Positions 342 to 12,829 are shown, counted from the first letter of the stretch. The stretch is 20,000 bases of DNA from an uncultured virus (IMG/VR IMGVR_UViG_3300031998_000082) (IMGVR_UViG_3300031998_000082), one strand, 5' to 3'. Translations and numbers: made by a program. The notes: generated by a model from the sequence alone, not told the origin.

Positions 342-1097
342 ATGGCACGATTTAATGCGAGTGAGTCCGCAAATTATGGCGGACAGGGAGGCGGAGGCTT
401 CTTCAGTATTTCAGAACACAAAGGCGTAAAGAGAGTCAGATTTCTTTATAACAACGAGGACGATATTGAGGGCTTCAGTGTTCATGAAGTAGATGTTGGT
501 GATAAGAAGAGGTACGTAAACTGTTTACGTACTTACAGAGACCCGGTTGATATGTGTCCGTTCTGTCGTGAACAGATGAAAACACAGGTCAAGCTTTTAA
601 TTCCTGTCTACAATGTAGATGAGGACCAAGTACAGGTTTGGGACAGAGGCAAGAAGATGTTTGAAAAGATGTCCAGTTTGTGTAGCAGATACGCGAACAA
701 GGATAATCTTGTACAGCATATCTTTGAAGTCGAGAGAAACGGAAAGCCCAAAGACACAAACACGACCTATGAGATTTACGAGGTCGAGAAAGATGATACA
801 CAGCTTGAAGATTTTGAAGATGATATGCCGAAGCTTCTTGGAGGTCTTGTTCTTGATAAGTCAGCTGATGACATGGAGTATTATCTTGAAGAAAAAGAGT
901 TTCCGCCCGATGACGATGAGGAAGAAGAGAGACCGCGCAGACGTTCAAGCAGAGAAGAGACAACTACGCGCAGACGTTCAAGTAAGCGCGATGAGGAAGA
1001 AGATGCGGACGATGATGAGGAAGAAGATGAGAAGCCCACAAGACGTAGTTCCGCACGTTCTGAAAGACGTACACCGTCAAGAAGAGGAGATAAATAA
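342..1097 (+). CDS. Phage single-stranded DNA-binding protein (gp32-like, probably Zn-binding) with a long charged low-complexity tail
   Basis: RBS GAGGAG. Motifs include GGGGFFSI..K..RVRFL, VHEV, YVNCL...CPFC, V.VWDRGK and FEVERNG...TTY, then a D/E/R-rich tail. It lies directly upstream of the polymerase (TAATG coupling). Confidence 0.75.
   Translation: MARFNASESANYGGQGGGGFFSISEHKGVKRVRFLYNNEDDIEGFSVHEVDVGDKKRYVNCLRTYRDPVDMCPFCREQMKTQVKLLIPVYNVDEDQVQVWDRGKKMFEKMSSLCSRYANKDNLVQHIFEVERNGKPKDTNTTYEIYEVEKDDTQLEDFEDDMPKLLGGLVLDKSADDMEYYLEEKEFPPDDDEEEERPRRRSSREETTTRRRSSKRDEEEDADDDEEEDEKPTRRSSARSERRTPSRRGDK
934..982 (+). repeat. 16-bp direct repeat CGCGCAGACGTTCAAG (934-949, 967-982) encoding RRRSS twice
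   Basis: Both copies read directly from the sequence, within the SSB tail. Confidence 0.85.
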
Positions 1098-3412
1098 TGC
1101 CGTTGTTTACGTTGCCTAAGACAAAGACAAATAGAGCTTTAGATAAGTCAATCGCAGGCAAGACAGCTACAGCAAAACAAGTGGTCCCGTCATTAAAGGG
1201 CGGGACCAGTTTAATCGGTAGAATTGAACAGATTAAGCAGATGGTCGAAAAGAATCTTGGAAAGTATCGTGATGAGTATTTATGTATCACAGATAAGGAA
1301 GTGCTTCATGATTACATCACAGAATGTATAGGCAATGGATACTTTTCGCTTGATACTGAGACTGATGGTCTTGACCCGATGCGTAATAAGATTGCGGGAC
1401 CATGTATTTACACATATGGTCAAAAGAGTGCATACATTCCAATCAATCATATTAGCTATATCACACAACAGAAAGCTGTTGGACAGCTTGATGCTGATTT
1501 TGTGCGTGAGGAGTTCAAGCGATTACTGAAGAAAAAGCCAGATATTGACATGTTCAATGCTGATTTTGATATCAGAGTCATGCGACACTTTGGTGTTCCA
1601 GATATCTACTGTACATGGGATGCTTATTTAGGCGCGCGTATTCTTAACGAAAACGAGCCTACAAACAAGCTGAAGCCATTACATCAAAAGTATGTAATGA
1701 ATGGACAGGGTGATGCGTTCACATTTGATGAGCTGTTTAAAGGTATACCGTTTACATTGATACCATACAATATTGGATATCTGTACGCCGCACACGACCC
1801 TATAATTACAACAGAGTTTTCTGATTATCAGAGACAGTATTTGAGACCTGACCATGAGCGTGAAGATATGCGACAGCTTTATTGGGTGTTCAAGAATATT
1901 GAGATGGCTTGTGTTCCTGTTGTAGCAGATATGGAAGATACTGGTGTTTTGATTAATACAGAGTATAGCAAGAGTTTGTCGGAAAAGTATAATGCACTCC
2001 TTGACGAAAAGGTGCAAGCTTTTTACGAGACTTTGAAGCCATATAAAGCTGAGATAGATAAAGCACGAAAGAATGGAGCAAAGCTTGACAATCCAATCAA
2101 TATAGGCAGTTCCGCACAGCTTGCGATATTATTTTACGATATCATGGGTATAGAGCCTGTAAACAAGAAGTCTCCGAGAAGTACAGATGAGGAGACGCTT
2201 ACAAAGATAGATAATGATGTATCAAAAGCAGTATTAGAGCATAGAAGCTTGGCAACACTTGTTTCCACGTTCATAGATAAGCTTCCTGAGTGTGTCAATC
2301 CCGATGATGGAAAGATACATTGTAAGTTCAATCAATATGGGGCAAAGACAGGTAGAATGTCAAGCAGTGAGCCAAATCTTCAGAATATACCAAGTCATAA
2401 TAAAGACATCAGAAAGATGTTTATAGCATCACCCGGATACTTGCTGATGAGTAGCGACTTTTCACAGCAGGAACCTAAATGTCTTGCCGCACTTTGTAAA
2501 GAAGCAGGAGACCCACAGATGTATAACACATTTATGGCAGGTAAGGATTTGTATTCTGAGATTGCTTCCAAAGCTTTTAACAAGCCTTATGATGAGTGCA
2601 GAGAGTTCAATGCAGACGGAAGCAAAAACAAAGAAGGTAAGGAGCGTAGAACGCAGGCAAAGAGCATTCTGTTGGGAGTTTTGTATGGCAGAGGTGAAGC
2701 AAGTATAGCGGAGCAATTAGGCTGTACAGAGGAAAAAGCTAAAGCAATAAAAAGCAGTGTATTCAGAGGATTTCCAGCGATTGAGAAATTTGAGCAAGAT
2801 TCACTTGATATGGCATATGATTTAGGTTATGTCACAACAGTATGTGGAAGAAAGCGTAGATTGCCAGAGCTTCAGCTTGAGGAATATGAGTTTAAATATA
2901 TCAATGGTGTTCCTGTAGATGATGACGTTTTAGACTTCAGCAGTGATTTACCTTTTGATGAGAATGGGAAGCCCGTACAGTTAGAGCAGGAAGTACCCGC
3001 CAAAACGCAGGATTTGCTCAGGAAGCGTCTTAAACGAGCTTGGTTTAAGGATAAGCTTAAAATCAAAAAAGAAGCGCAGGAAAAGGGAATCCTGATAATT
3101 GACAACGGTGGTAAAATCGCAGATGCTACACGACAGGTTGTAAATTCGAGAATACAAGGTAGCGCCGCTGATTTGACAAAGCTTGCCATGATAAAGCTAA
3201 GTAAAAGTGAAAGATTAAAAGAGCTTGGATTCAGATTGCTTATACCCGTACATGATGAGGTCATAGCAGAGTGTCCTGAGGAAAACATCAAAGAATGTTC
3301 CGAGCTGTTGGCAAAAACGATGTCAGAGGCCGCTGAGGAAATTTTGAAGATGCCAATCAAGTGCGATGTCGAGATAACAAAAGAATGGTATGGACAGACA
3401 GTCGAAATCTAA
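1097..3412 (+). CDS. polA: Family A DNA polymerase with a 3'-5' proofreading domain and no 5'-3' exonuclease domain
   Basis: ExoI SLDTETDGL, ExoII FNADFD, ExoIII YAAHD; TGRMSSSEPNLQNIP; motif A SSDFSQQE; motif B RTQAKSILLGVLYG; NSRIQGSAAD; motif C VHDEV. Confidence 0.97.
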   Translation: MPLFTLPKTKTNRALDKSIAGKTATAKQVVPSLKGGTSLIGRIEQIKQMVEKNLGKYRDEYLCITDKEVLHDYITECIGNGYFSLDTETDGLDPMRNKIAGPCIYTYGQKSAYIPINHISYITQQKAVGQLDADFVREEFKRLLKKKPDIDMFNADFDIRVMRHFGVPDIYCTWDAYLGARILNENEPTNKLKPLHQKYVMNGQGDAFTFDELFKGIPFTLIPYNIGYLYAAHDPIITTEFSDYQRQYLRPDHEREDMRQLYWVFKNIEMACVPVVADMEDTGVLINTEYSKSLSEKYNALLDEKVQAFYETLKPYKAEIDKARKNGAKLDNPINIGSSAQLAILFYDIMGIEPVNKKSPRSTDEETLTKIDNDVSKAVLEHRSLATLVSTFIDKLPECVNPDDGKIHCKFNQYGAKTGRMSSSEPNLQNIPSHNKDIRKMFIASPGYLLMSSDFSQQEPKCLAALCKEAGDPQMYNTFMAGKDLYSEIASKAFNKPYDECREFNADGSKNKEGKERRTQAKSILLGVLYGRGEASIAEQLGCTEEKAKAIKSSVFRGFPAIEKFEQDSLDMAYDLGYVTTVCGRKRRLPELQLEEYEFKYINGVPVDDDVLDFSSDLPFDENGKPVQLEQEVPAKTQDLLRKRLKRAWFKDKLKIKKEAQEKGILIIDNGGKIADATRQVVNSRIQGSAADLTKLAMIKLSKSERLKELGFRLLIPVHDEVIAECPEENIKECSELLAKTMSEAAEEILKMPIKCDVEITKEWYGQTVEI

Positions 3413-3427
3413 GAGGAGATAAATTTT

Positions 3428-3784
3428 ATGGCACTATTTGAAGTTAAACCTAAGTTTTATTACGAGCCACATCTTGATATGACTGATAAAAACAAGTGTG
3501 TGGATTTAACTGAGTATTTAGAGCTTGTTAAAGCTATTGATGGAGATAGTAGCTTGACAACAAATGATAAGAACTTTTTTAAGATTCTTGCCACGCGATT
3601 TATCGTGTTTAAGTATGAGAAGTTAGCAGATTTATACGCAAGCACAAAAGACGCTAATATTAAGCGTTGGCTTGAAGCCTTAAAGAGCGTGATAGTAGAT
3701 ACAGATAAAGCTATAGAGTCAGGTTATTTCAAGTATCTTAATGACTATTCAATGTTATTGGAGGATATTGTAGATGAAAAATAA
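3428..3784 (+). CDS. Small glycosyltransferase-associated protein, copy 1 (paralog of 4592-4987)
   Basis: RBS GAGGAG. Aligns by eye with 4592-4987 (ATRFIVFKYEKLADLYA / ATRHIVFNYAKIADFYA; VIVDTDKAIESGYFK / VIIDIDDAIVNGYVK). Overlaps the downstream GT gene by 11 nt. Confidence 0.8.
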   Translation: MALFEVKPKFYYEPHLDMTDKNKCVDLTEYLELVKAIDGDSSLTTNDKNFFKILATRFIVFKYEKLADLYASTKDANIKRWLEALKSVIVDTDKAIESGYFKYLNDYSMLLEDIVDEK

Positions 3785-4592
3785 CTTTGCTTATTTCATA
3801 GCAAGCTATGGTAAGCCTGATAACATTATGACGTTACAACAGCTTAAAGAGCATGATGTAAAATATCCTATCTACATAGTTGTAGGTACTGATGACCCTA
3901 AGCTTGAAGAGTATAAGACTACATACAAAGATAACCTTTTGGTGTTTGATAAAGCTGATTATATCGACAAAATAGATGATATTGGTGTTTATGCTAAAAC
4001 TCATAAAGTGTGTACATATTCGAGATTAGCAGTTCAGGACTTTGCACTTCAGCTTGGTGTGAAATACGTTTGTTATCTTTTTGATGATATACAGTATTTT
4101 CAGATTCGATATGTAAGTGCTGAGAACAAGGTTAAATCAACAAGAAAATTTGACTTTGATAGAATGATGGACATGTATGTTAATCTGTTAAATTCGAGTG
4201 ATGATTTGGTTCTTGTTGGACCACCAAATTCAAGCTTTTATATTGGGGTTAACAGCACTTGTGCGGATAAGTATTCTACAAGATATGGAAATATGTTTAT
4301 CTATGATGTTGAAAGAATGCCAGACGTTTTGAGAACAAGCATACTTGAAGATATGGACATTATATTGCAGAACAACAAAATTGGTAAGATGTCGATATGT
4401 CCATTTGGATTACAAGTATGTTGCCGAGACCCTCACACCACAACAGATTGTTATGGTAATATGAGTAAGTCAGAGTATTACCAGCATCTTGTTCTATTAG
4501 GTCAGAGACCTGTTGCATTGGACAGACCTACAATACCTTATGCAAGTTTTACACCTAAGATAATCAGTCCAGAATACAGGAGGATAGTTTAA
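3774..4592 (+). CDS. Putative GT-A-fold glycosyltransferase (TAGT/GREB1-like), divergent copy 1
   Basis: FAYFIASYGKPD N-terminal strand, SR...A..LG..Y....FDD (degenerate DxD), ILEDMD, C-terminal PKIIS. Clear paralog of 4977-5828. Confidence 0.65.
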   Translation: MKNNFAYFIASYGKPDNIMTLQQLKEHDVKYPIYIVVGTDDPKLEEYKTTYKDNLLVFDKADYIDKIDDIGVYAKTHKVCTYSRLAVQDFALQLGVKYVCYLFDDIQYFQIRYVSAENKVKSTRKFDFDRMMDMYVNLLNSSDDLVLVGPPNSSFYIGVNSTCADKYSTRYGNMFIYDVERMPDVLRTSILEDMDIILQNNKIGKMSICPFGLQVCCRDPHTTTDCYGNMSKSEYYQHLVLLGQRPVALDRPTIPYASFTPKIISPEYRRIV

Positions 4593-4987
4593 TGCCATTG
4601 TTTAAAATCAAAAAAGAAGTTGATACCAAATACACAGCAAAAGTATTACCACCTCAGTATTTACCAAGTGCAATAGCTCCTAAGATGCATGAGCTTTGTG
4701 ATTTAGCGCAGTATAAAAAGCTTATGCAGAATATCAACAAGTCCGATATTCCAGACGAAATTAAAGACTTTCTGAAGCTTGGAGCAACAAGGCATATAGT
4801 GTTTAACTACGCAAAGATAGCAGACTTTTATGCCCATGCAGAACCTGAAGTGCAGAGATTGATGGAAGAATCAGCGTTGGTAATAATTGATATCGATGAT
4901 GCCATTGTGAATGGATATGTAAAGCTGAGTAAAAATATTAAGCAGATTATGGACCAGACAGGAAGAAGGACAAAAGATGAGAGCTGA
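4592..4987 (+). CDS. Small glycosyltransferase-associated protein, copy 2
   Basis: TAATG coupling and RBS GGAGG. Paralog of 3428-3784. Overlaps the downstream GT gene by 11 nt. Confidence 0.82.
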   Translation: MPLFKIKKEVDTKYTAKVLPPQYLPSAIAPKMHELCDLAQYKKLMQNINKSDIPDEIKDFLKLGATRHIVFNYAKIADFYAHAEPEVQRLMEESALVIIDIDDAIVNGYVKLSKNIKQIMDQTGRRTKDES

Positions 4988-5828
4988 TTTTGCCATTTTT
5001 ATACTGACACATGGAAGAGCTGATAATGTGATAACTACAGATACATTAAAGCGATGCGGAAATACAAATAGAATCTATTATATCATCGATAATGAGGATA
5101 AGCAGGCAGATTTATATCGACAGCGATTCGGTGCTGAAAATGTCATTATGTTTGACAAAAAGAAGAAAGCCAAGAGCTGTGATACAATGGATTTAGTTGA
5201 TAATCGAAATATTGTATTGTTTGCACGTAACAGCTGTTTTGAGATAGCTAAGAAGCTTGGCCTGACATATTTTTTAGAGCTTGATGATGATTATACAATC
5301 TTTAGAAGTCGAATGTGGGACGGAGATAAGCTTGCTACAGTCTATTGTACAGATTTAGATTCGGTGATAGATGAGACAATAGATTTCCTTGAAACGAGTG
5401 GAGCAACAACAGTGGCATTTGGACAGACAGGAGATTTTATTGGTGGTAGTGGTTGTAAGCTGTTTAAGGAAAAGATTCTGAGAAAAGCAATGAATAGCTT
5501 TTTCTGTAAAGTTGACAGACCTTTTGATTTTTATGGTAGAATCAATGAAGATGTCAACGCTTATGTATCATTGGGAAGTAGAGGTAAGCTGTTTTTTACA
5601 ATTTCAGATATGACACTAAACCAGCACGACACACAGCAGAACAGCGGTGGTTTAACAGATGCCTACTTACAGATGGGCACATATGTGAAGTCTTTTTACA
5701 CTGTTATGGGAAATCCCTCATGTGTTAAAATATCAGAGATGGGTTGTGGACATAAAAGAATACATCATCTCATAGATTGGGACCATGCAGTGCCAAAAAT
5801 AATAAGCGATAAATTCAAGAAAGGATAA
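4977..5828 (+). CDS. Putative GT-A-fold glycosyltransferase (TET/JBP-associated TAGT/GREB1-like family), copy 2
   Basis: FAIFILTHGRA, FARN, YFLELDDDY (DxD), RKAMNSFF, GRINEDVN (ED motif), QQNSGGL, RIHH, PKIIS. This pattern is recalled for phage nucleic-acid glycosyltransferases. Confidence 0.75.
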   Translation: MRADFAIFILTHGRADNVITTDTLKRCGNTNRIYYIIDNEDKQADLYRQRFGAENVIMFDKKKKAKSCDTMDLVDNRNIVLFARNSCFEIAKKLGLTYFLELDDDYTIFRSRMWDGDKLATVYCTDLDSVIDETIDFLETSGATTVAFGQTGDFIGGSGCKLFKEKILRKAMNSFFCKVDRPFDFYGRINEDVNAYVSLGSRGKLFFTISDMTLNQHDTQQNSGGLTDAYLQMGTYVKSFYTVMGNPSCVKISEMGCGHKRIHHLIDWDHAVPKIISDKFKKG

Positions 5829-5833
5829 TAGCT

Positions 5834-6004
5834 ATGGGAGGAAGAACAAGAAAAGCACCATCAAGAAGGATTCACACAAGAAAGATTGACAGAATGGTTG
5901 CAAAAAACAATATGCGCATTTTAGGCATTTCAGTGCATGATTGCATCAAACATGGAAGATTTTCTGATGCATGGAAAGAGTATTCAAAAGAAGTTAAAGC
6001 GTAA
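5834..6004 (+). CDS. Small basic hypothetical protein (56 aa, MGGRTRKAPSRRIHTRKIDR...), not in the ORF track
   Basis: Manual translation. It fills the gap between the GT and the clamp, has an AAGGA RBS upstream, and its stop abuts the clamp RBS. Confidence 0.7.
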   Translation: MGGRTRKAPSRRIHTRKIDRMVAKNNMRILGISVHDCIKHGRFSDAWKEYSKEVKA

Positions 6005-6016
6005 AGGAGAGACAAC

Positions 6017-7156
6017 ATGGCAGGAAAGAAAAAGACAGAGACAAAGACAGAAGCAGTAAAAGCAAATGTGTTGACGATTTCAGCGGAGACATTCAAGACA
6101 TTGGTAAGCAAAGCTTACAAGGGAGTAGGTAATAACAAGCTTTTACCACTTACACAGTTGATGTGCATCAGAGTAAAGGATGGAGAGCTTACGCTGATTG
6201 TATCAGATGAGACAGGAACCAATTATCTGTATGTGAGACAGAAGAACATTGAAGGAGAGTTTTATGCCACAGTTCTTGCTGACCAATTTGCAAAGCTGAT
6301 AGAGAAACAGACCTGTGAGAAAATCACGATGGAAGCTGATGCTGATAAGCTTAATGTTACAGGTAATGGAAAGTACACTATAGCTTTACAGTATGATGAA
6401 ATGGGTAATTCCATACAGTATCCTGACCCGATTAGTGACTTAGTGATGCCTGAAGCAGGAGCGGGTAATATCAAACTTTCAGTGGTATCAAAGATGCTTA
6501 ATTCTGTAAAGCCTGCGCTTGCTGTTTCGATGGATGCGCCGTATCTTACAGGCTATTATGCAGGAGACATCATTGCCGCGACAAACGGAGATGAGATGAG
6601 CATATACAGTACAGAGCTTATGGAAGAGCCTGTAATACTGTCTCCGACAGTTATAGAGCTGTTATCATTGTCGGCCGATGATAAGTTTTCAGTTGAGCGA
6701 TATGATGAGGGAGTGCTTTTGTTCTATGCTTCAGATATTCAGATTTATACACATGCGATGGAAGGCATTGACGATTATCCTGTAGAAGCACTGAAGCAGT
6801 TTAAAGAAGCAGATATGCCTTACAGTTGTAAGCTGTCAAAGAATGCACTGATGCAGGCGCTTGATAGAATATCATTGTTTATAGGTGCATATGATGACAA
6901 CGCAATCAAGCTGACATTTGATGGTAAAGCTGTCAAGATATCATCACTTGCAAGCACAGGCGTGGAAGACATTACGTATATGTCAGGAAGTAAGGATAAG
7001 TTTGAATGTACTGTTGATTCTGTAGCATTTACAAAGCATGTAAAAGCGCAGTCCACAGATACTGTAGAACTTCAGTTTGGCGATGAGTCAGCAATCAAGC
7101 TTATTGATGGTGATATCGTGCAGATTTTGAGCTTGTTTGAGGAAGATAATGCGTAA
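6017..7156 (+). CDS. dnaN: DNA polymerase sliding clamp (DnaN/beta-clamp-like)
   Basis: 379 aa, acidic, with three repeated beta-clamp-like domains (LPLTQLMCIRVKDGELTL; YLTGYY...ATNG; DYP; LMQALDRISLF; VELQFGDESAIKL). A clamp loader is encoded nearby. Confidence 0.85.
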   Translation: MAGKKKTETKTEAVKANVLTISAETFKTLVSKAYKGVGNNKLLPLTQLMCIRVKDGELTLIVSDETGTNYLYVRQKNIEGEFYATVLADQFAKLIEKQTCEKITMEADADKLNVTGNGKYTIALQYDEMGNSIQYPDPISDLVMPEAGAGNIKLSVVSKMLNSVKPALAVSMDAPYLTGYYAGDIIAATNGDEMSIYSTELMEEPVILSPTVIELLSLSADDKFSVERYDEGVLLFYASDIQIYTHAMEGIDDYPVEALKQFKEADMPYSCKLSKNALMQALDRISLFIGAYDDNAIKLTFDGKAVKISSLASTGVEDITYMSGSKDKFECTVDSVAFTKHVKAQSTDTVELQFGDESAIKLIDGDIVQILSLFEEDNA

Positions 7157-7210: not shown

Positions 7211-7265
7211 AAAATTTAAAAAAAGTGTTGACAAATGGCTAAACGTGTTATATAATGTTCTTGTG
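7211..7265 (+). promoter_or_regulatory. Consensus sigma-A/70 promoter P1 (repeat copy 1)
   Basis: TTGACA 7228-7233, 17-bp spacer containing AAACGTGTT, TATAAT 7251-7256, upstream A/T tracts. Confidence 0.93.
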
Positions 7266-7303: not shown

Positions 7304-7509
7304 ATGAAGAAAACAAACAAAGTTAATGTGTACATCGAGTTCTTTAATTATTGCGGATTAATGTGTACATCGAGTTCTTTAATTATTGCGGAGAGGTTCA
7401 GAGCAAAGATTTGATAGCAACATTTAATTCAGTTAATTGGGCAAATAAGTTTGTTGATGCTTGCAAAGATGATATTGATGATAGATTTTCAAGATTTGTA
7501 ATAGAGTGA
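7304..7509 (+). pseudogene. Small gene (56 aa if intact) frameshifted by a 35-bp tandem duplication
   Basis: RBS GAGGT and ATG at 7304. As written it stops at 7412-7414 (36 aa). Removing one repeat unit gives MKKTNKVNVYIEFFNYCGEVQSKDLIATFNSVNWANKFVDACKDDIDDRFSRFVIE, ending at TGA 7507-7509 on the next gene's RBS. Confidence 0.8.
7323..7392 (+). repeat. Perfect 2 x 35-bp tandem duplication TTAATGTGTACATCGAGTTCTTTAATTATTGCGGA
   Basis: Units 7323-7357 and 7358-7392 are identical. Confidence 0.97.
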
Positions 7510-9676: not shown

Positions 9677-9880
9677 ATGTACAAAGTTATGAAAGCATGT
9701 TTATTGATTATCAAGATAGTGCTTGTTGTAGGATTTATATTCGGATTGATTTGTTTCTTTTCTGAGACATCTGAAGCGAGTGGACTTACATCACAGATTA
9801 AATTGTGGATTACTGGTATAGTCATCTGTTTAGGGTGTGGATTAGCTTTAGCATTTATCAAGTATGAGGAGGAAAAATGA
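9677..9880 (+). CDS. Small membrane protein (two predicted TM helices)
   Basis: Two hydrophobic runs: LLIIKIVLVVGFIFGLICFF and LWITGIVICLGCGLALAFI. Confidence 0.75.
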   Translation: MYKVMKACLLIIKIVLVVGFIFGLICFFSETSEASGLTSQIKLWITGIVICLGCGLALAFIKYEEEK

Positions 9881-11064
9881 TATCGTTAGCAGTAAAATAT
9901 AGACCTAAGTCATTTGATGACGTAACAGAGCAGGAGAGCACCAAAGTGATTTTGAAGCAACAGTTGGAGAGCAATGAAGTAGAACATGCATATTTATTTT
10001 GTGGTGGAGCTGGTACAGGTAAAACAACATGTGCGCGTATTTTTGCATCAGAGATAAATAAAGGCAAAGGCAATCCTATTGAGATGGATGCCGCGTCAAA
10101 TAGTAGCGTGGAAGATGTAAGAAACATCATTCAGCAAGCAAAGACAAAGAGTCTGGACAGTGAGTATAAAGTGTTTATTATAGATGAGTGCCACGCAATC
10201 AGTTTAATGGGCTGGCAAGCTTTTCTGAAGCTTCTTGAAGAGCCACCTGCTAAGAGCATTTTTATATTCTGTACAACAGACCCACAGAAAATACCCAAGA
10301 CGATTCTTTCAAGGGTGCAGAGATATGACTTTCAGAGAATAAGTCAGCACGGTATTGTATCACGCTTGGAATATATACTTAACTGTGAGATGGCAGATTT
10401 TGATAATTTTTCAGACTTTACATTTACAAAAGATTTTGCAAATAATTGGAAATCAGGAGATGTTGTCAAGTGTGAGAAGAAATCAGATGGCATATTGGTT
10501 GATAGTGTTGCATTGGTAGACAGCATTAAGTTATTGAAACATGGTCATTTCAATTTTAGTATTAAGTATGACTCCGATGCCCTTGAGTATATAGCCAAGA
10601 TAGCGGATGGTGGAATGCGTGATGCAATCACACTAATGGATAAAGCTTTATCATACAGTATGAATCTGACACTTGAAAATGTTGTGAAAGCACTTGGTGT
10701 TACAAACTATGATACTATGTTTCAGTTGACAGATAAGCTGGTGTATGGTGATACTATGGCGATGTGGTCAATCATAGACGATATACACGCAAAGGGCAAA
10801 GATTTAAAGCGATTTATCAAGAGCTATGTGCAGTTTTTACTTGATGTCAACAAATACGCGCTTGGCTGTGATTGGAAGCAGATGTCAATACCAAGACTTG
10901 GTGAGTATGAGAAGAGACTTGATAAGTGGTTAAAAGATAACGACATCTTTACGGATTTGCTGAATGAGATTGTAAAGATTGATAATGATATCAAGTATAG
11001 TTCCGCACCTAAATACGACATAGAAGCAAGATTACTGCTTTGGATAGAGGGAGGCAAAGAATGA
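9877..11064 (+). CDS. dnaX: Clamp loader ATPase, DNA Pol III gamma/tau-like
   Basis: LAVKYRPKSFDDV, HAYLFCG, Walker A GGAGTGKTT, EMDAAS, Walker B IIDECH, LLKLLEEPP-like FLKLLEEPP, TILSRVQ, GGMRDA. Confidence 0.95.
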   Translation: MISLAVKYRPKSFDDVTEQESTKVILKQQLESNEVEHAYLFCGGAGTGKTTCARIFASEINKGKGNPIEMDAASNSSVEDVRNIIQQAKTKSLDSEYKVFIIDECHAISLMGWQAFLKLLEEPPAKSIFIFCTTDPQKIPKTILSRVQRYDFQRISQHGIVSRLEYILNCEMADFDNFSDFTFTKDFANNWKSGDVVKCEKKSDGILVDSVALVDSIKLLKHGHFNFSIKYDSDALEYIAKIADGGMRDAITLMDKALSYSMNLTLENVVKALGVTNYDTMFQLTDKLVYGDTMAMWSIIDDIHAKGKDLKRFIKSYVQFLLDVNKYALGCDWKQMSIPRLGEYEKRLDKWLKDNDIFTDLLNEIVKIDNDIKYSSAPKYDIEARLLLWIEGGKE

Positions 11065-11894
11065 CAGGTCAGAAGAGATTACAAGATATATTTAAGATGC
11101 TTATACACAACAGCGATTTTCCAAGATTTTGCATCTTAACAGGACAGGTAGGAAGTGGTAAAAAGACAATGTGCGATTGGATAGTCGATGAGTTCAGAAA
11201 ATGCAATCCGTCAATCACATCATATAAGCTTCCTGATGTCAAGATAGATACTATACGAGAGATGATAGCTACGAGCTATCGCGCAGTGAATCCAATTATC
11301 TACATAATCGCAGATGCGGATACAATGTCAGTACAAGCTAAAAATTCACTATTGAAGATAACGGAAGAACCACCAAATAACGCTTATTTTGTTATGACGC
11401 TGGAAAGCACGGAAATGACTTTAGAGACAGTTAAGAGTCGAGCATCGATATTTCAGTTAGACCCATATACTTCCGACGAAATTAGAGCATATTCCAAGCG
11501 TTTGGGAGTATCTAAAGCAGATGAGCTTGGCATGATTTGTGATATATGCGATGTTCCGGGAGATGTCGAGCATATGCTGATATATGGAGTTAAGGATTTT
11601 TATGGGTATGTCAATAAGGTCATTGACAACATTGATACAGCTGATGGAGCAAATGTTTTTAAAGCATCTGTCAAGTTAGCTTTACGAGACGATGAAGGAT
11701 ATGATGTAAAACTGTTTTTACGAGCATTTATGGCAGTGTGTGCGGAGCGTATGAAGAAAGAGAATCCGCTTAAATATGCGACAGGTACATCAATCACAAG
11801 TAAGTACATGAGTCAGCTTGGCATTAGAGGTGTATCAAAGTCAATGTTGATTGATGCTTGGATAATCGAAATGCGAAGATATTGGACGAGGTGA
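11061..11894 (+). CDS. holB: Clamp loader delta'-like subunit
   Basis: Degenerate P-loop GQVGSGKKT, KIDTIRE, ADTMSVQAKNSLLKITEEPP, TVKSRA. ATGA overlap with dnaX and RBS GGAGG; start revised to 11061. Confidence 0.88.
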   Translation: MTGQKRLQDIFKMLIHNSDFPRFCILTGQVGSGKKTMCDWIVDEFRKCNPSITSYKLPDVKIDTIREMIATSYRAVNPIIYIIADADTMSVQAKNSLLKITEEPPNNAYFVMTLESTEMTLETVKSRASIFQLDPYTSDEIRAYSKRLGVSKADELGMICDICDVPGDVEHMLIYGVKDFYGYVNKVIDNIDTADGANVFKASVKLALRDDEGYDVKLFLRAFMAVCAERMKKENPLKYATGTSITSKYMSQLGIRGVSKSMLIDAWIIEMRRYWTR

Positions 11895-11899
11895 TGCAT

Positions 11900-12829
11900 A
11901 TGACACTTGCAGAGCTGAAAGCTGAAATGATGTCAGGTAGAATGCGTCAGATATACATTTTTACAGGCACCGAGATTGAAGTTAGAGGAATCTATCTAAA
12001 GCAGATAGCAAAGCTTGGCAAGTTTGAAATCAAATGGATTGATGAAGTTTCAGACATAATACAGTCAAGCAGAAAGAAATCCATGATAGCTTCAAAATCA
12101 TTATATGTTCTGTCTGAATCATCAGAGATTTTGAAAAATGATAAAGCACTTGAAGCAGTGCAGAGATGCATAGGAAAAAATATGCTTGTGTGCATGTTTA
12201 CAACGCTTGATAAGCGCGTTAAACTGTACAAGCAGTATAAAGATATCATCGTAGAATTTGAGACGCTTAAAAGCGAAATCCTGAAGAAATACATACAAAA
12301 GGAAATCGGTCTGTCAGATAAAAACTGTACGAGATTGATGGAGATATGTGAAAACGATTATGGTAGATGTCTTTTGGAGATTGATAAGATAAAGAGATTT
12401 CATATAGTCACAGAGCGATTATACGACCAGTCTTTTATATCATTACTTCAAGATGGAACGATATATCAGCCCGCCAAAGATGTTATCTTTGATTTTGTAG
12501 ATGCTGTAATGCAGAGAGATGCCTATACGGCATTTAAGCTGATGCAGGAAAGCTATGACAGCGGTGAAGCTACGTTGGTGATGATATCGAATCTATACAG
12601 CAACTTTAAAGCGACATTGCAGGTAAAATCGTGCAAAAGTCGAGACATCGCAAAGAGTACAGGATTAAACACTTGGCAGATAAACAACGCTAAAAAACAC
12701 ATAGGCAATTATTCTGTCAAAGAGCTAATCAATGCAATGCAGATTATACGCAATGCAGAGGTTGGTATAAAGTCAGGATTGATTGATGAAGAGGTAGCAG
12801 TACCACAGATTTTAGTAAATATTTTATGA
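11900..12829 (+). CDS. holA: Clamp loader delta-like subunit
   Basis: IYIFTGTE, LDKR.KLYK, LLEIDKI, IFDFVDAV, WQINNAKK, E..IKSG are HolA-like motifs. RBS GAGGTG; start revised to 11900. Confidence 0.85.
   Translation: MTLAELKAEMMSGRMRQIYIFTGTEIEVRGIYLKQIAKLGKFEIKWIDEVSDIIQSSRKKSMIASKSLYVLSESSEILKNDKALEAVQRCIGKNMLVCMFTTLDKRVKLYKQYKDIIVEFETLKSEILKKYIQKEIGLSDKNCTRLMEICENDYGRCLLEIDKIKRFHIVTERLYDQSFISLLQDGTIYQPAKDVIFDFVDAVMQRDAYTAFKLMQESYDSGEATLVMISNLYSNFKATLQVKSCKSRDIAKSTGLNTWQINNAKKHIGNYSVKELINAMQIIRNAEVGIKSGLIDEEVAVPQILVNIL

Follow-up and report, generated by a model that had tools for sequence, protein, structure and literature searches.

The starts of a DNA polymerase gene and of two small genes in an uncultured virus (IMG/VR IMGVR_UViG_3300031998_000082) encode a common terminal Leu-Phe (LF) tag, which is probably a docking peptide for the phage's own beta-type sliding clamp, a version of the bacterial clamp-binding motif without its Gln. 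The stretch analyzed (the window) comprises 20,000 nucleotides, positions 43,141-63,140 of a 64,159-bp virus record that is 93% complete. Its replication block, on the plus strand through the clamp loader genes, contains genes for a single-strand DNA-binding protein (SSB), a 771-residue family A DNA polymerase with a 3'-5' exonuclease domain (PolA; 1097-3412; PF00476, E 2e-91; PF01612, E 7e-9), a cassette of two small partner proteins and two glycosyltransferases (GTs), and the clamp (6017-7156, 379 aa), with DnaX, delta-prime, delta and RecA further on. Within the cassette, partner 1 (3428-3784, 118 aa) precedes GT1 (3774-4592, 272 aa), and partner 2 (4592-4987, 131 aa), an N-terminal arm followed by a helical domain, precedes GT2 (4977-5828, 283 aa); the cassette genes overlap one another at stop and start codons.

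As the original prediction had described, PolA starts MPLFTLPK (1097; tag MPLF at 1097-1108), partner 1 MALFEVKPK (3428; tag MALF at 3428-3439) and partner 2 MPLFKIKK (4592; tag MPLF at 4592-4603). Each ATG follows a GGAG/AGGAGG-type ribosome-binding site by about 7-8 nt, and those at 1097 and 4592 overlap the stop codon of the preceding gene (TAATG). That no other open reading frame (ORF) starts in this way was also borne out, as LF stands at positions 3-4 in 3 of the 101 plus-strand genes of the whole record, exactly these three. For a motif named in advance, 0.28 such genes would be expected within the genome and the probability of three or more is 0.003; as partner 1 is a divergent paralog of partner 2 (37% identity over 91 aa), the value for two or more, 0.03, is the fairer one. 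The dipeptides NI, KE, KY, IK and KI also occur three times each at these positions, and 98% of 5000 shuffles yield some dipeptide three times there, so the window by itself does not go beyond chance and the case rests on homologs.

Starts of homologs were chosen by a fixed rule (ribosome-binding site, ATG and overlap) without regard to the motif, the homologs were thinned at 90% identity, and a tag was scored as LF within the first 12 residues. Such a tag is present in 58 of 70 PolA proteins (69 of 70 if L may be followed by F, W or I) and in 61 of 69 stand-alone partners from loci with a phage PolA or clamp. Among control genes it is found in 0/67 SSB, 0/57 clamp, 2/228 GT, 0/16 DnaX, 0/14 delta-prime, 0/9 delta and 0/41 RecA sequences and in 15/740 other genes; chance as the entire explanation is ruled out by these homolog counts. 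L3 is invariant across a 32-row PolA alignment, F4 is retained in at least 90% of 86 partner rows, and a later, wider set of 143 distinct PolA starts includes 102 with LF, 116 with L[FWI] and 16 more with L-x-F. PolA keeps its tag also in phages that have no GT cassette. The M-[PA]-L-F unit originally proposed fared less well than the Leu-Phe within it: the M-x-L-F form occurs in 44/70 PolA proteins, 15/69 partners and 0/740 other genes, and by these comparisons the conserved unit is the terminal LF.

Some further features of the polymerases were noted. Among 47 distant phage family A polymerases (L326-L378; these and similar numbers are our handles for loci), 27 start with a Gln-type clamp motif by a loose pattern; these proteins are of about 620 aa, with about 25% identity and no clamp in the locus, and may use the host clamp. 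In one clade (L304, L306, L410, L414-L421, L427, L429 and L431) PolA starts with L-x-F spacing (MALSF), and TGT-like and methyltransferase genes of the same clade end in K/R-x-LF. In several relatives (L004, L221 and others) PolA is split by inserted genes that by eye are homing-endonuclease-like or methyltransferase-like.

Bacterial beta-clamp ligands use the motif Q-phi-x-L-F, with the consensus QL[S/D]LF (PMC6511837, PMC9690074, bioRxiv 10.64898/2026.05.27.728225), in which LF sits in subsite I of the clamp and Q in subsite II (bioRxiv 10.64898/2026.05.27.728225). The Leu-Phe pair is present at all three window starts, and it lies on a flexible terminal segment: in a model of partner 2, residues 1-20 have pLDDT values of 56-60 and no secondary structure, while residues 31-90 are helical at 93-98, and in PolA the match to DNA_pol_A_exo1 begins at residue 63, leaving an arm of about 60 residues. 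Relatives L005 and L155 have PolA proteins that read QLSLF, the textbook clamp consensus, and Q-x-x-L-F occurs in 6/70 PolA proteins and in 6/69 partners of loci with their own clamp. The window tags resemble the bacterial motif in that their LF pair sits at a flexible end, a clamp of beta fold is present, and relatives show the full consensus at the same position. They differ from it in having no Gln, in lying at the extreme N-terminus and in being followed by basic residues (preceded by them in the C-terminal versions described below), and the clamp that they would probably bind is that of the phage, whose pocket has diverged.

The assignment of that receptor to the beta fold follows from a profile of 51 phage clamps, which matches Bacillus subtilis DnaN with E 1e-16 over 336 of 359 positions, and from a model of the clamp (pLDDT 93) that gives Foldseek TM values of 0.76-0.82 to DnaN structures; by profile and model the phage clamp has a true beta fold. 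The clamp-binding motif that the original prediction had proposed is supported by comparison for PolA and for partners of the partner-2 type, with some relatives having Q-x-x-L-F, and does not extend in the same way to partner 1, whose tag is lineage-restricted. We consider it quite likely that the PolA and partner-2 tags dock on the clamp.

The strongest independent evidence for a docking tag is convergence of other enzymes encoded in the same place, between PolA and clamp. In a survey of 224 loci of this phage group with 2129 genes, 92 genes end in LF where 7.0 would be expected from the internal frequency, and the two residues ahead of the terminal LF are mostly K or R. The 32 LF-ending genes that were scanned for family include N6/N4 and C5 DNA methyltransferases, other S-adenosylmethionine (SAM) enzymes, TGT-like (PHROG 887), GNAT-ABC, PAPS-reductase-like and radical SAM proteins, one GT of the TAGT family, an HNH nuclease, and several with no family. 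Among 90 loci with both PolA and clamp, L[FW] ends are found in 62 of 347 genes lying between the two, versus 16 of 1126 outside; a tagged gene is present in 72 of the 83 loci whose PolA-clamp slot holds genes, and of the 89 clamps placed on a tree, 84 come from loci with a tagged partner or an L[FW]-ending gene (by loose patterns). L188 has a PolA 98% identical to that of the window phage, and in the position of the GT cassette it encodes a C5 methyltransferase whose last residues are KRKSLF.

Two kinds of protein in this survey are of separate interest. A 175-residue family with no Pfam or PHROG match (L191:16775-17308, with relatives in L196, L203, L379 and L386) has an LF end in 5/6 members and is a candidate DNA-modifying protein. 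ABC-ATPase plus GNAT proteins encoded directly after PolA (L197:12308-13510, L211:12391-13608) have LF at both ends.

Several observations weigh against docking on the clamp. A Gln three residues ahead of the Leu is absent from all three window tags, which have only M-P or M-A before it, and because of this they are not classed as canonical clamp motifs; a Q-to-A change lowers binding to the Escherichia coli clamp (bioRxiv 10.64898/2026.05.27.728225). The two-subsite clamp pocket includes His175, Asn320, Met362, Pro363 and Arg365 (PMC6511837). The phage clamps do not retain the His of the B. subtilis pocket strand (ATDSHRL), and their sequence therefore does not show the pocket to be intact; for the C-terminal strand, the profile match ends at position 336 and the remainder is unaligned, with hydrophobic residues remaining there. 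The homolog counts take kin sequences as independent, and queries containing the tag may have ranked tagged matches first. Ends in VF (65, 11.8-fold) and IF (36, 7.1-fold) are enriched as well, by eye largely as primase and helicase tails, so terminal Phe has more than one use in these phages. Co-evolution of tag styles between PolA and partner (rho 0.75 for Gln across 38 loci) was discarded as evidence, only one independent contrast being left on the clamp tree. Set against the first of these points, E. coli MutL binds the clamp through its Leu with the Gln dispensable (PMC6511837), and a loss of Gln-binding clamp residues would fit a Gln-less tag; we consider that the Gln-less window tags most likely work like canonical clamp motifs. 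An Arg or Lys after the T-D of the pocket strand, seen by eye in five loci with Gln tags, was dropped as a correlate, being present in three Gln-less loci too. Modeling of partner 2 residues 1-30 in complex with clamp residues 16-379, both entered as alignments and with no controls folded, gave a score of 0.02, which was counted neither for nor against.

In some phages, T7 among them, SSBs and helicases bind a shared hub through tails ending in Phe at the C-terminus, and the LF peptides could likewise bind a hub that is not the clamp, be it loader, helicase, SSB or polymerase. The missing pocket His and the Phe-ending tails that are common on the SSB, primase and helicase of these phages would suit this explanation. 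We nonetheless regard it as improbable, as relatives have exact QLSLF or Q-x-x-L-F, the known beta-clamp consensus, at the tag position, the Gln-containing form prevails in records that lack a clamp gene (see below), and PolA itself is tagged.

A clamp loader is encoded at 9877-12829, by Pfam matches, with a DnaX-like gene at 9877-11064, a delta-prime-like gene at 11061-11894 and a delta-like gene extending to 12829. The delta profile matches PDB 3zh9 DELTA (E 2.5e-8), and a phmmer search with delta against PDB gave no match. Delta contains an internal basic-then-hydrophobic site, RKKSMI (12071-12088), which reads KKSMF, KSFF and NSLF in relatives and which may correspond to the LF pair by which E. 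coli delta opens the clamp; the aligned support for this placement is one weak RFC3 match (E 0.5), and the site, similar in style to the C-terminal tails, is a candidate clamp-opening site offered as a lead.

The partners belong to a large, unnamed family of 1,387 clusters at 50% identity, and it is within this family that tag and context can be compared. Elsewhere, in many phages and prophages, the partner domain forms the C-terminal end of longer proteins of 250-300 aa, and partner 2 matches PHROG 620 at positions 157-215 only (E 2e-6), in its C-terminal part; the window partners, at 118 and 131 aa, have no ParB N-terminal nucleotide-binding domain. A ParB-like profile, seeded from Pfam ParB_N matches in 13 of 48 proteins scanned, matches 168 of 176 N-terminal extensions of the partner domain. 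(The other eight extensions are not ParB-like; L247 has a fusion in which a domain other than ParB stands N-terminal to that of the partner.) Lactobacillus phage c5 and similar cultured phages have the ParB fusion and a TAGT beside the terminase. LF is present in 89 of 105 stand-alone N-termini versus 10 of 71 fused linkers, and Q-x-x-L-F in 21 of 105 versus 0 of 71, counts that leave out eleven partner ORFs open at a contig end. An independent library gives a similar picture, with [LM][FW] in 20/24 short representatives and in the matching linker of 13/94 long ones, and Q-x-x-[LM][FW] in 8/24 and 1/94, respectively. The ParB domain and the tag broadly exclude each other.

The form of the tag also varies with the presence of a clamp. 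A tree group of 15 stand-alone partners from loci without phage PolA or clamp has Q-x-x-L-F in 11/15, by eye. No clamp gene was found in four records of this group at 92-100% completeness, a fifth, 44% complete, being too partial to count; the same searches did find a clamp in record G006 and in 4/5 other records. This pattern is consistent with tags that have the Gln serving the host clamp and tags that lack it serving a phage clamp.

Some of this might instead reflect descent. Several Firmicutes ParB linkers read D-M-[ST]-L-F-G-F, placed about as far from the core as the tag is, and such a linker is a possible source of it; the partner tag could then be a relic of the end of the ParB domain, left when the protein was cut back to the internal Met of D-M-x-L-F-G-F. 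It would then play no part in docking, and its match to PolA would be coincidental. Partner 1 loses its tag freely, as this would predict, and a single origin of all stand-alone forms is not rejected in an approximately unbiased (AU) test (p 0.864; 67 rows, of which 22 own-clamp, 15 clamp-less and 30 fused, with L078 and L291 left out). Against a relic stand the contrast between stand-alone termini and fused linkers in both LF and Q-x-x-L-F, the retention of LF though neighboring residues vary, and the PolA tag and C-terminal LF of unrelated enzymes, which it leaves unexplained; we think it quite improbable, slightly more so than binding to another hub. A first tree had suggested that the tagged stand-alone partner arose twice independently, which the AU test did not uphold, and the independent fused-versus-alone contrasts on supported branches number only three.

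The tag of partner 1 is patchy. It is present in 5/8 close homologs, itself included (at least 68% identity), and absent from three more distant ones; among six partner-1-type lineages in the loci surveyed only that of the window has it, the others (L038/L048, L113, L117, L085/L165 and L221) being untagged, which counts against a general role. Partner 2 is still tagged in relatives where partner 1 is not, and in L085, where partner 1 is untagged, GT1 ends in KKLI; a single hook per cassette may be enough. Whether the partner 1 tag is functional we regard as evenly balanced. In some cassettes the GT itself has a tag-like end (L085:8129-8962, KKLI; L067:5474-6388, SSLF; L129:9377-10318, KRLF), as if the hook moves within the cassette.

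Both GTs score above the cut-off of the TAGT family (PF20691; 50.6 bits for GT1 and 132.5 for GT2, cut-off 27.5), and GT2 also matches PHROG 842 (E 9e-67); the two are 24% identical. The active-site motifs of this GT-A family are R...DDD...ED (bioRxiv 10.1101/2023.12.21.572611), and GT2 has the complete set (R83, DDD at 103, ED at 191), whereas GT1 has R83, F-D-D at 103 in place of D-D-D, and E-D at 192. Neither GT has a terminal LF, and an N-terminal one occurs in 2 of 228 GT homologs whose termini were examined. The pairing of partner and TAGT genes is close: among 215 distinct partners, a TAGT follows within 150 nt in 187 and within 3 kb in 13 more, 12 have no room for one and 3 have none, in loci that were mostly picked by the partner. 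What suggests that the partners are tethering adaptors for the GTs, the role originally predicted, is this gene adjacency. Partner-GT fusion ORFs are absent (0/308 partner ORFs), two or three TAGTs accompany one partner in L005, L041 and L061, so that the pairing is not one to one, and in Vibrio phage Va1 the stand-alone partner encoded ahead of the TAGT lacks an LF tag; these facts, too, are unfavorable to an adaptor. Given docking, a role of the partner as carrier or activator of its GT is likely, and the adaptor model as a whole is in our view somewhat better than even.

An alternative in which the tag still docks on the clamp gives the partner an active part, as a subunit that acts on DNA or activates the GT and by which the acceptor is presented, flipped or prepared. 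ParB activates some T-dioxygenases, the nucleotide-binding and C-terminal domains of a ParB protein acting on the cognate dioxygenase (PMC13229309). Twelve columns are invariant in 86 partner rows, among them the polar R67, Y73, Y80, E92 and D100, untagged partners exist and persist, and no precursor enzyme was found in the record, all of which would suit an active subunit. The domain itself, at about 100 residues and mostly helical, has no Pfam family and no catalytic motif that we recognized, and we consider this role unlikely. Fold searches with the partner 2 model gave a best Z of 3.7 among 48,161 PDB representatives, two unnamed homologs only in BFVD and no usable match in the ESM Atlas, and at the level of the model they indicate neither a known nor a new fold.

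The nature of the acceptor bears on a further alternative, in which the GTs glycosylate something other than a DNA base, such as a phage or host protein or the nucleotide pool, and docking on the clamp serves only to keep them at the site of replication. At an E cut-off of 0.1, neither Tet_JBP (PF12851) nor thymidylate synthase (ThyS; PF00303) was matched in the record, which is 93% complete, a point against DNA glycosylation; the ThyS search matched in 10/14 genomes used as a control and the TET search had no true positive control. Likewise no TET, ThyS, alpha-GT-like first step or precursor enzyme was detected in the record, 33 other proteins of which were also scanned. About 65% of GT-bearing contigs are reported to have no neighboring base-modification enzyme (bioRxiv 10.1101/2023.12.21.572611), and solitary TAGTs are reported in 288 of 753 genomes (PMC13216743). 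Even so, a characterized member of the family glucosylates phage DNA, the T2/T6 TAGT adding a second glucose (PMC13216743), and the same slot in relatives holds DNA methyltransferases and TGT-like enzymes; a non-DNA acceptor is in our judgment the least probable of the alternatives considered. We note additions to the cassette in relatives (L002:6791-7999, L003:8401-9339, L002:9255-9977): a 400-aa protein with no Pfam or PHROG match that replaces partner 1 and GT1, a radical SAM enzyme, or a cytidylyltransferase-like enzyme.

On the basis of the tags that were observed and are conserved, the fold of the clamp, the order of the genes, the ParB-versus-tag exchange and the slot convergence, clamp docking would work as follows. 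The phage loader, judged by its homology, would place the clamp ring on DNA, and PolA would grip it by the N-terminal LF on its flexible arm. The same clamp pocket would serve partner 2 and, probably, the partner 1 of this lineage, on a second protomer of the ring or on rings left behind the fork. The helical body of the partner would carry the adjacently encoded TAGT onto newly made DNA, the weakest step, and GT1 and GT2 would add sugars, probably sequentially, to an acceptor. The stand-alone partner would be the ParB-less form of the widespread ParB-partner fusion, its tag providing the ring for loading on DNA, a part played in other phages by the ParB domain.

A broader synthesis, which as a whole we put at a little under even, would have a new adaptor family loading orphan TAGTs on DNA by two interchangeable rings: its own ParB domain where the cassette adjoins the terminase, or else the replication clamp by a terminal LF, with a Gln-type tag for a host clamp and a Gln-less, basic one for a phage clamp. 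The PolA-clamp slot would then be a plug-in socket in which every DNA-modifying cassette has at least one LF hook, and the GT pair would make glycosylated DNA without TET or a hydroxymethylase.

The original prediction knew of no description of this arrangement. Clamp-coupled DNA modification is of a known kind, because binding of the T4 alpha-GT to gp45 has been published: the two co-purify in vitro (PMC13216743), an earlier preprint (10.64898/2025.12.06.692756) having found none. As in that system, a phage DNA glycosyltransferase would here be coupled to the phage's own sliding clamp. In T4 a GT-B enzyme binds a T4-type clamp directly and acts on hydroxymethylcytosine (hmC), whereas here the GT-A enzymes are untagged, a separate small protein has the tag, the clamp is of the beta type and no hmC pathway was found. 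The GTs resemble the T2/T6 beta-glucosyl-HMC alpha-glucosyltransferase (TAGT) in passing the Pfam cut-off and, for GT2, in the R...DDD...ED motifs, and are unlike the T2/T6 and TET-associated GT-A enzymes in having no TET, ThyS or alpha-GT partner in the record and an obligatory-looking small partner gene upstream. The ParB activators of T-dioxygenases (PMC13229309) offer a parallel as ParB-linked helpers beside a DNA-modifying enzyme, given that the partner's fused relatives have a ParB domain; the likeness ends where the window partners have no ParB domain and the enzyme is a glycosyltransferase. Dnmt1 is brought to new DNA by a clamp-binding peptide for PCNA (PMC9690074), as is proposed here for the GTs, in a eukaryote and with the motif on the enzyme itself. 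GTs are reported near ParB, gp45 and clamp genes, and the passages concerned mention no adaptor (bioRxiv 10.1101/2023.12.21.572611). In the literature searched, which covers subscription journals thinly, we found no tagged adaptor, ParB exchange or terminal LF tags on phage modification enzymes. What is new here is the adaptor layout and the ParB-versus-tag exchange; clamp-coupled glucosylation as such was already known.

If the adaptor model is correct, it would account for the way in which phages whose DNA is modified after synthesis shield it in time from the nucleases of the host, and it gives the unnamed partner family a testable role. A sequence rule, a terminal LF in the PolA-clamp slot, would pick out DNA-modifying enzymes that are as yet unknown, and the question of solitary TAGTs becomes testable in cultured phages with the ParB-fused form, such as Lactobacillus phage c5.

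Other features of the window lie around these genes. The SSB gene (342-1097; PHROG 14578, E 2e-43) has a stop codon that overlaps the PolA start. A small basic ORF of 56 aa (5834-6004) precedes the clamp gene and is kept there in several relatives, with or without the GT cassette. At 7323-7392, just past a 12/12 sigma-70 promoter (7228-7256), is a perfect 35-bp tandem duplication that shifts the frame of a small ORF and is either an assembly artefact or a recent duplication. Outside the window (G000 C1 3802-4962 and 6333-7847), genes for a P-loop kinase matching Pfam Zeta_toxin and for a glycosyltransferase of family 2 lie on either side of the terminase genes, near which several ORFs share a W-I-T-x-N-G start motif.

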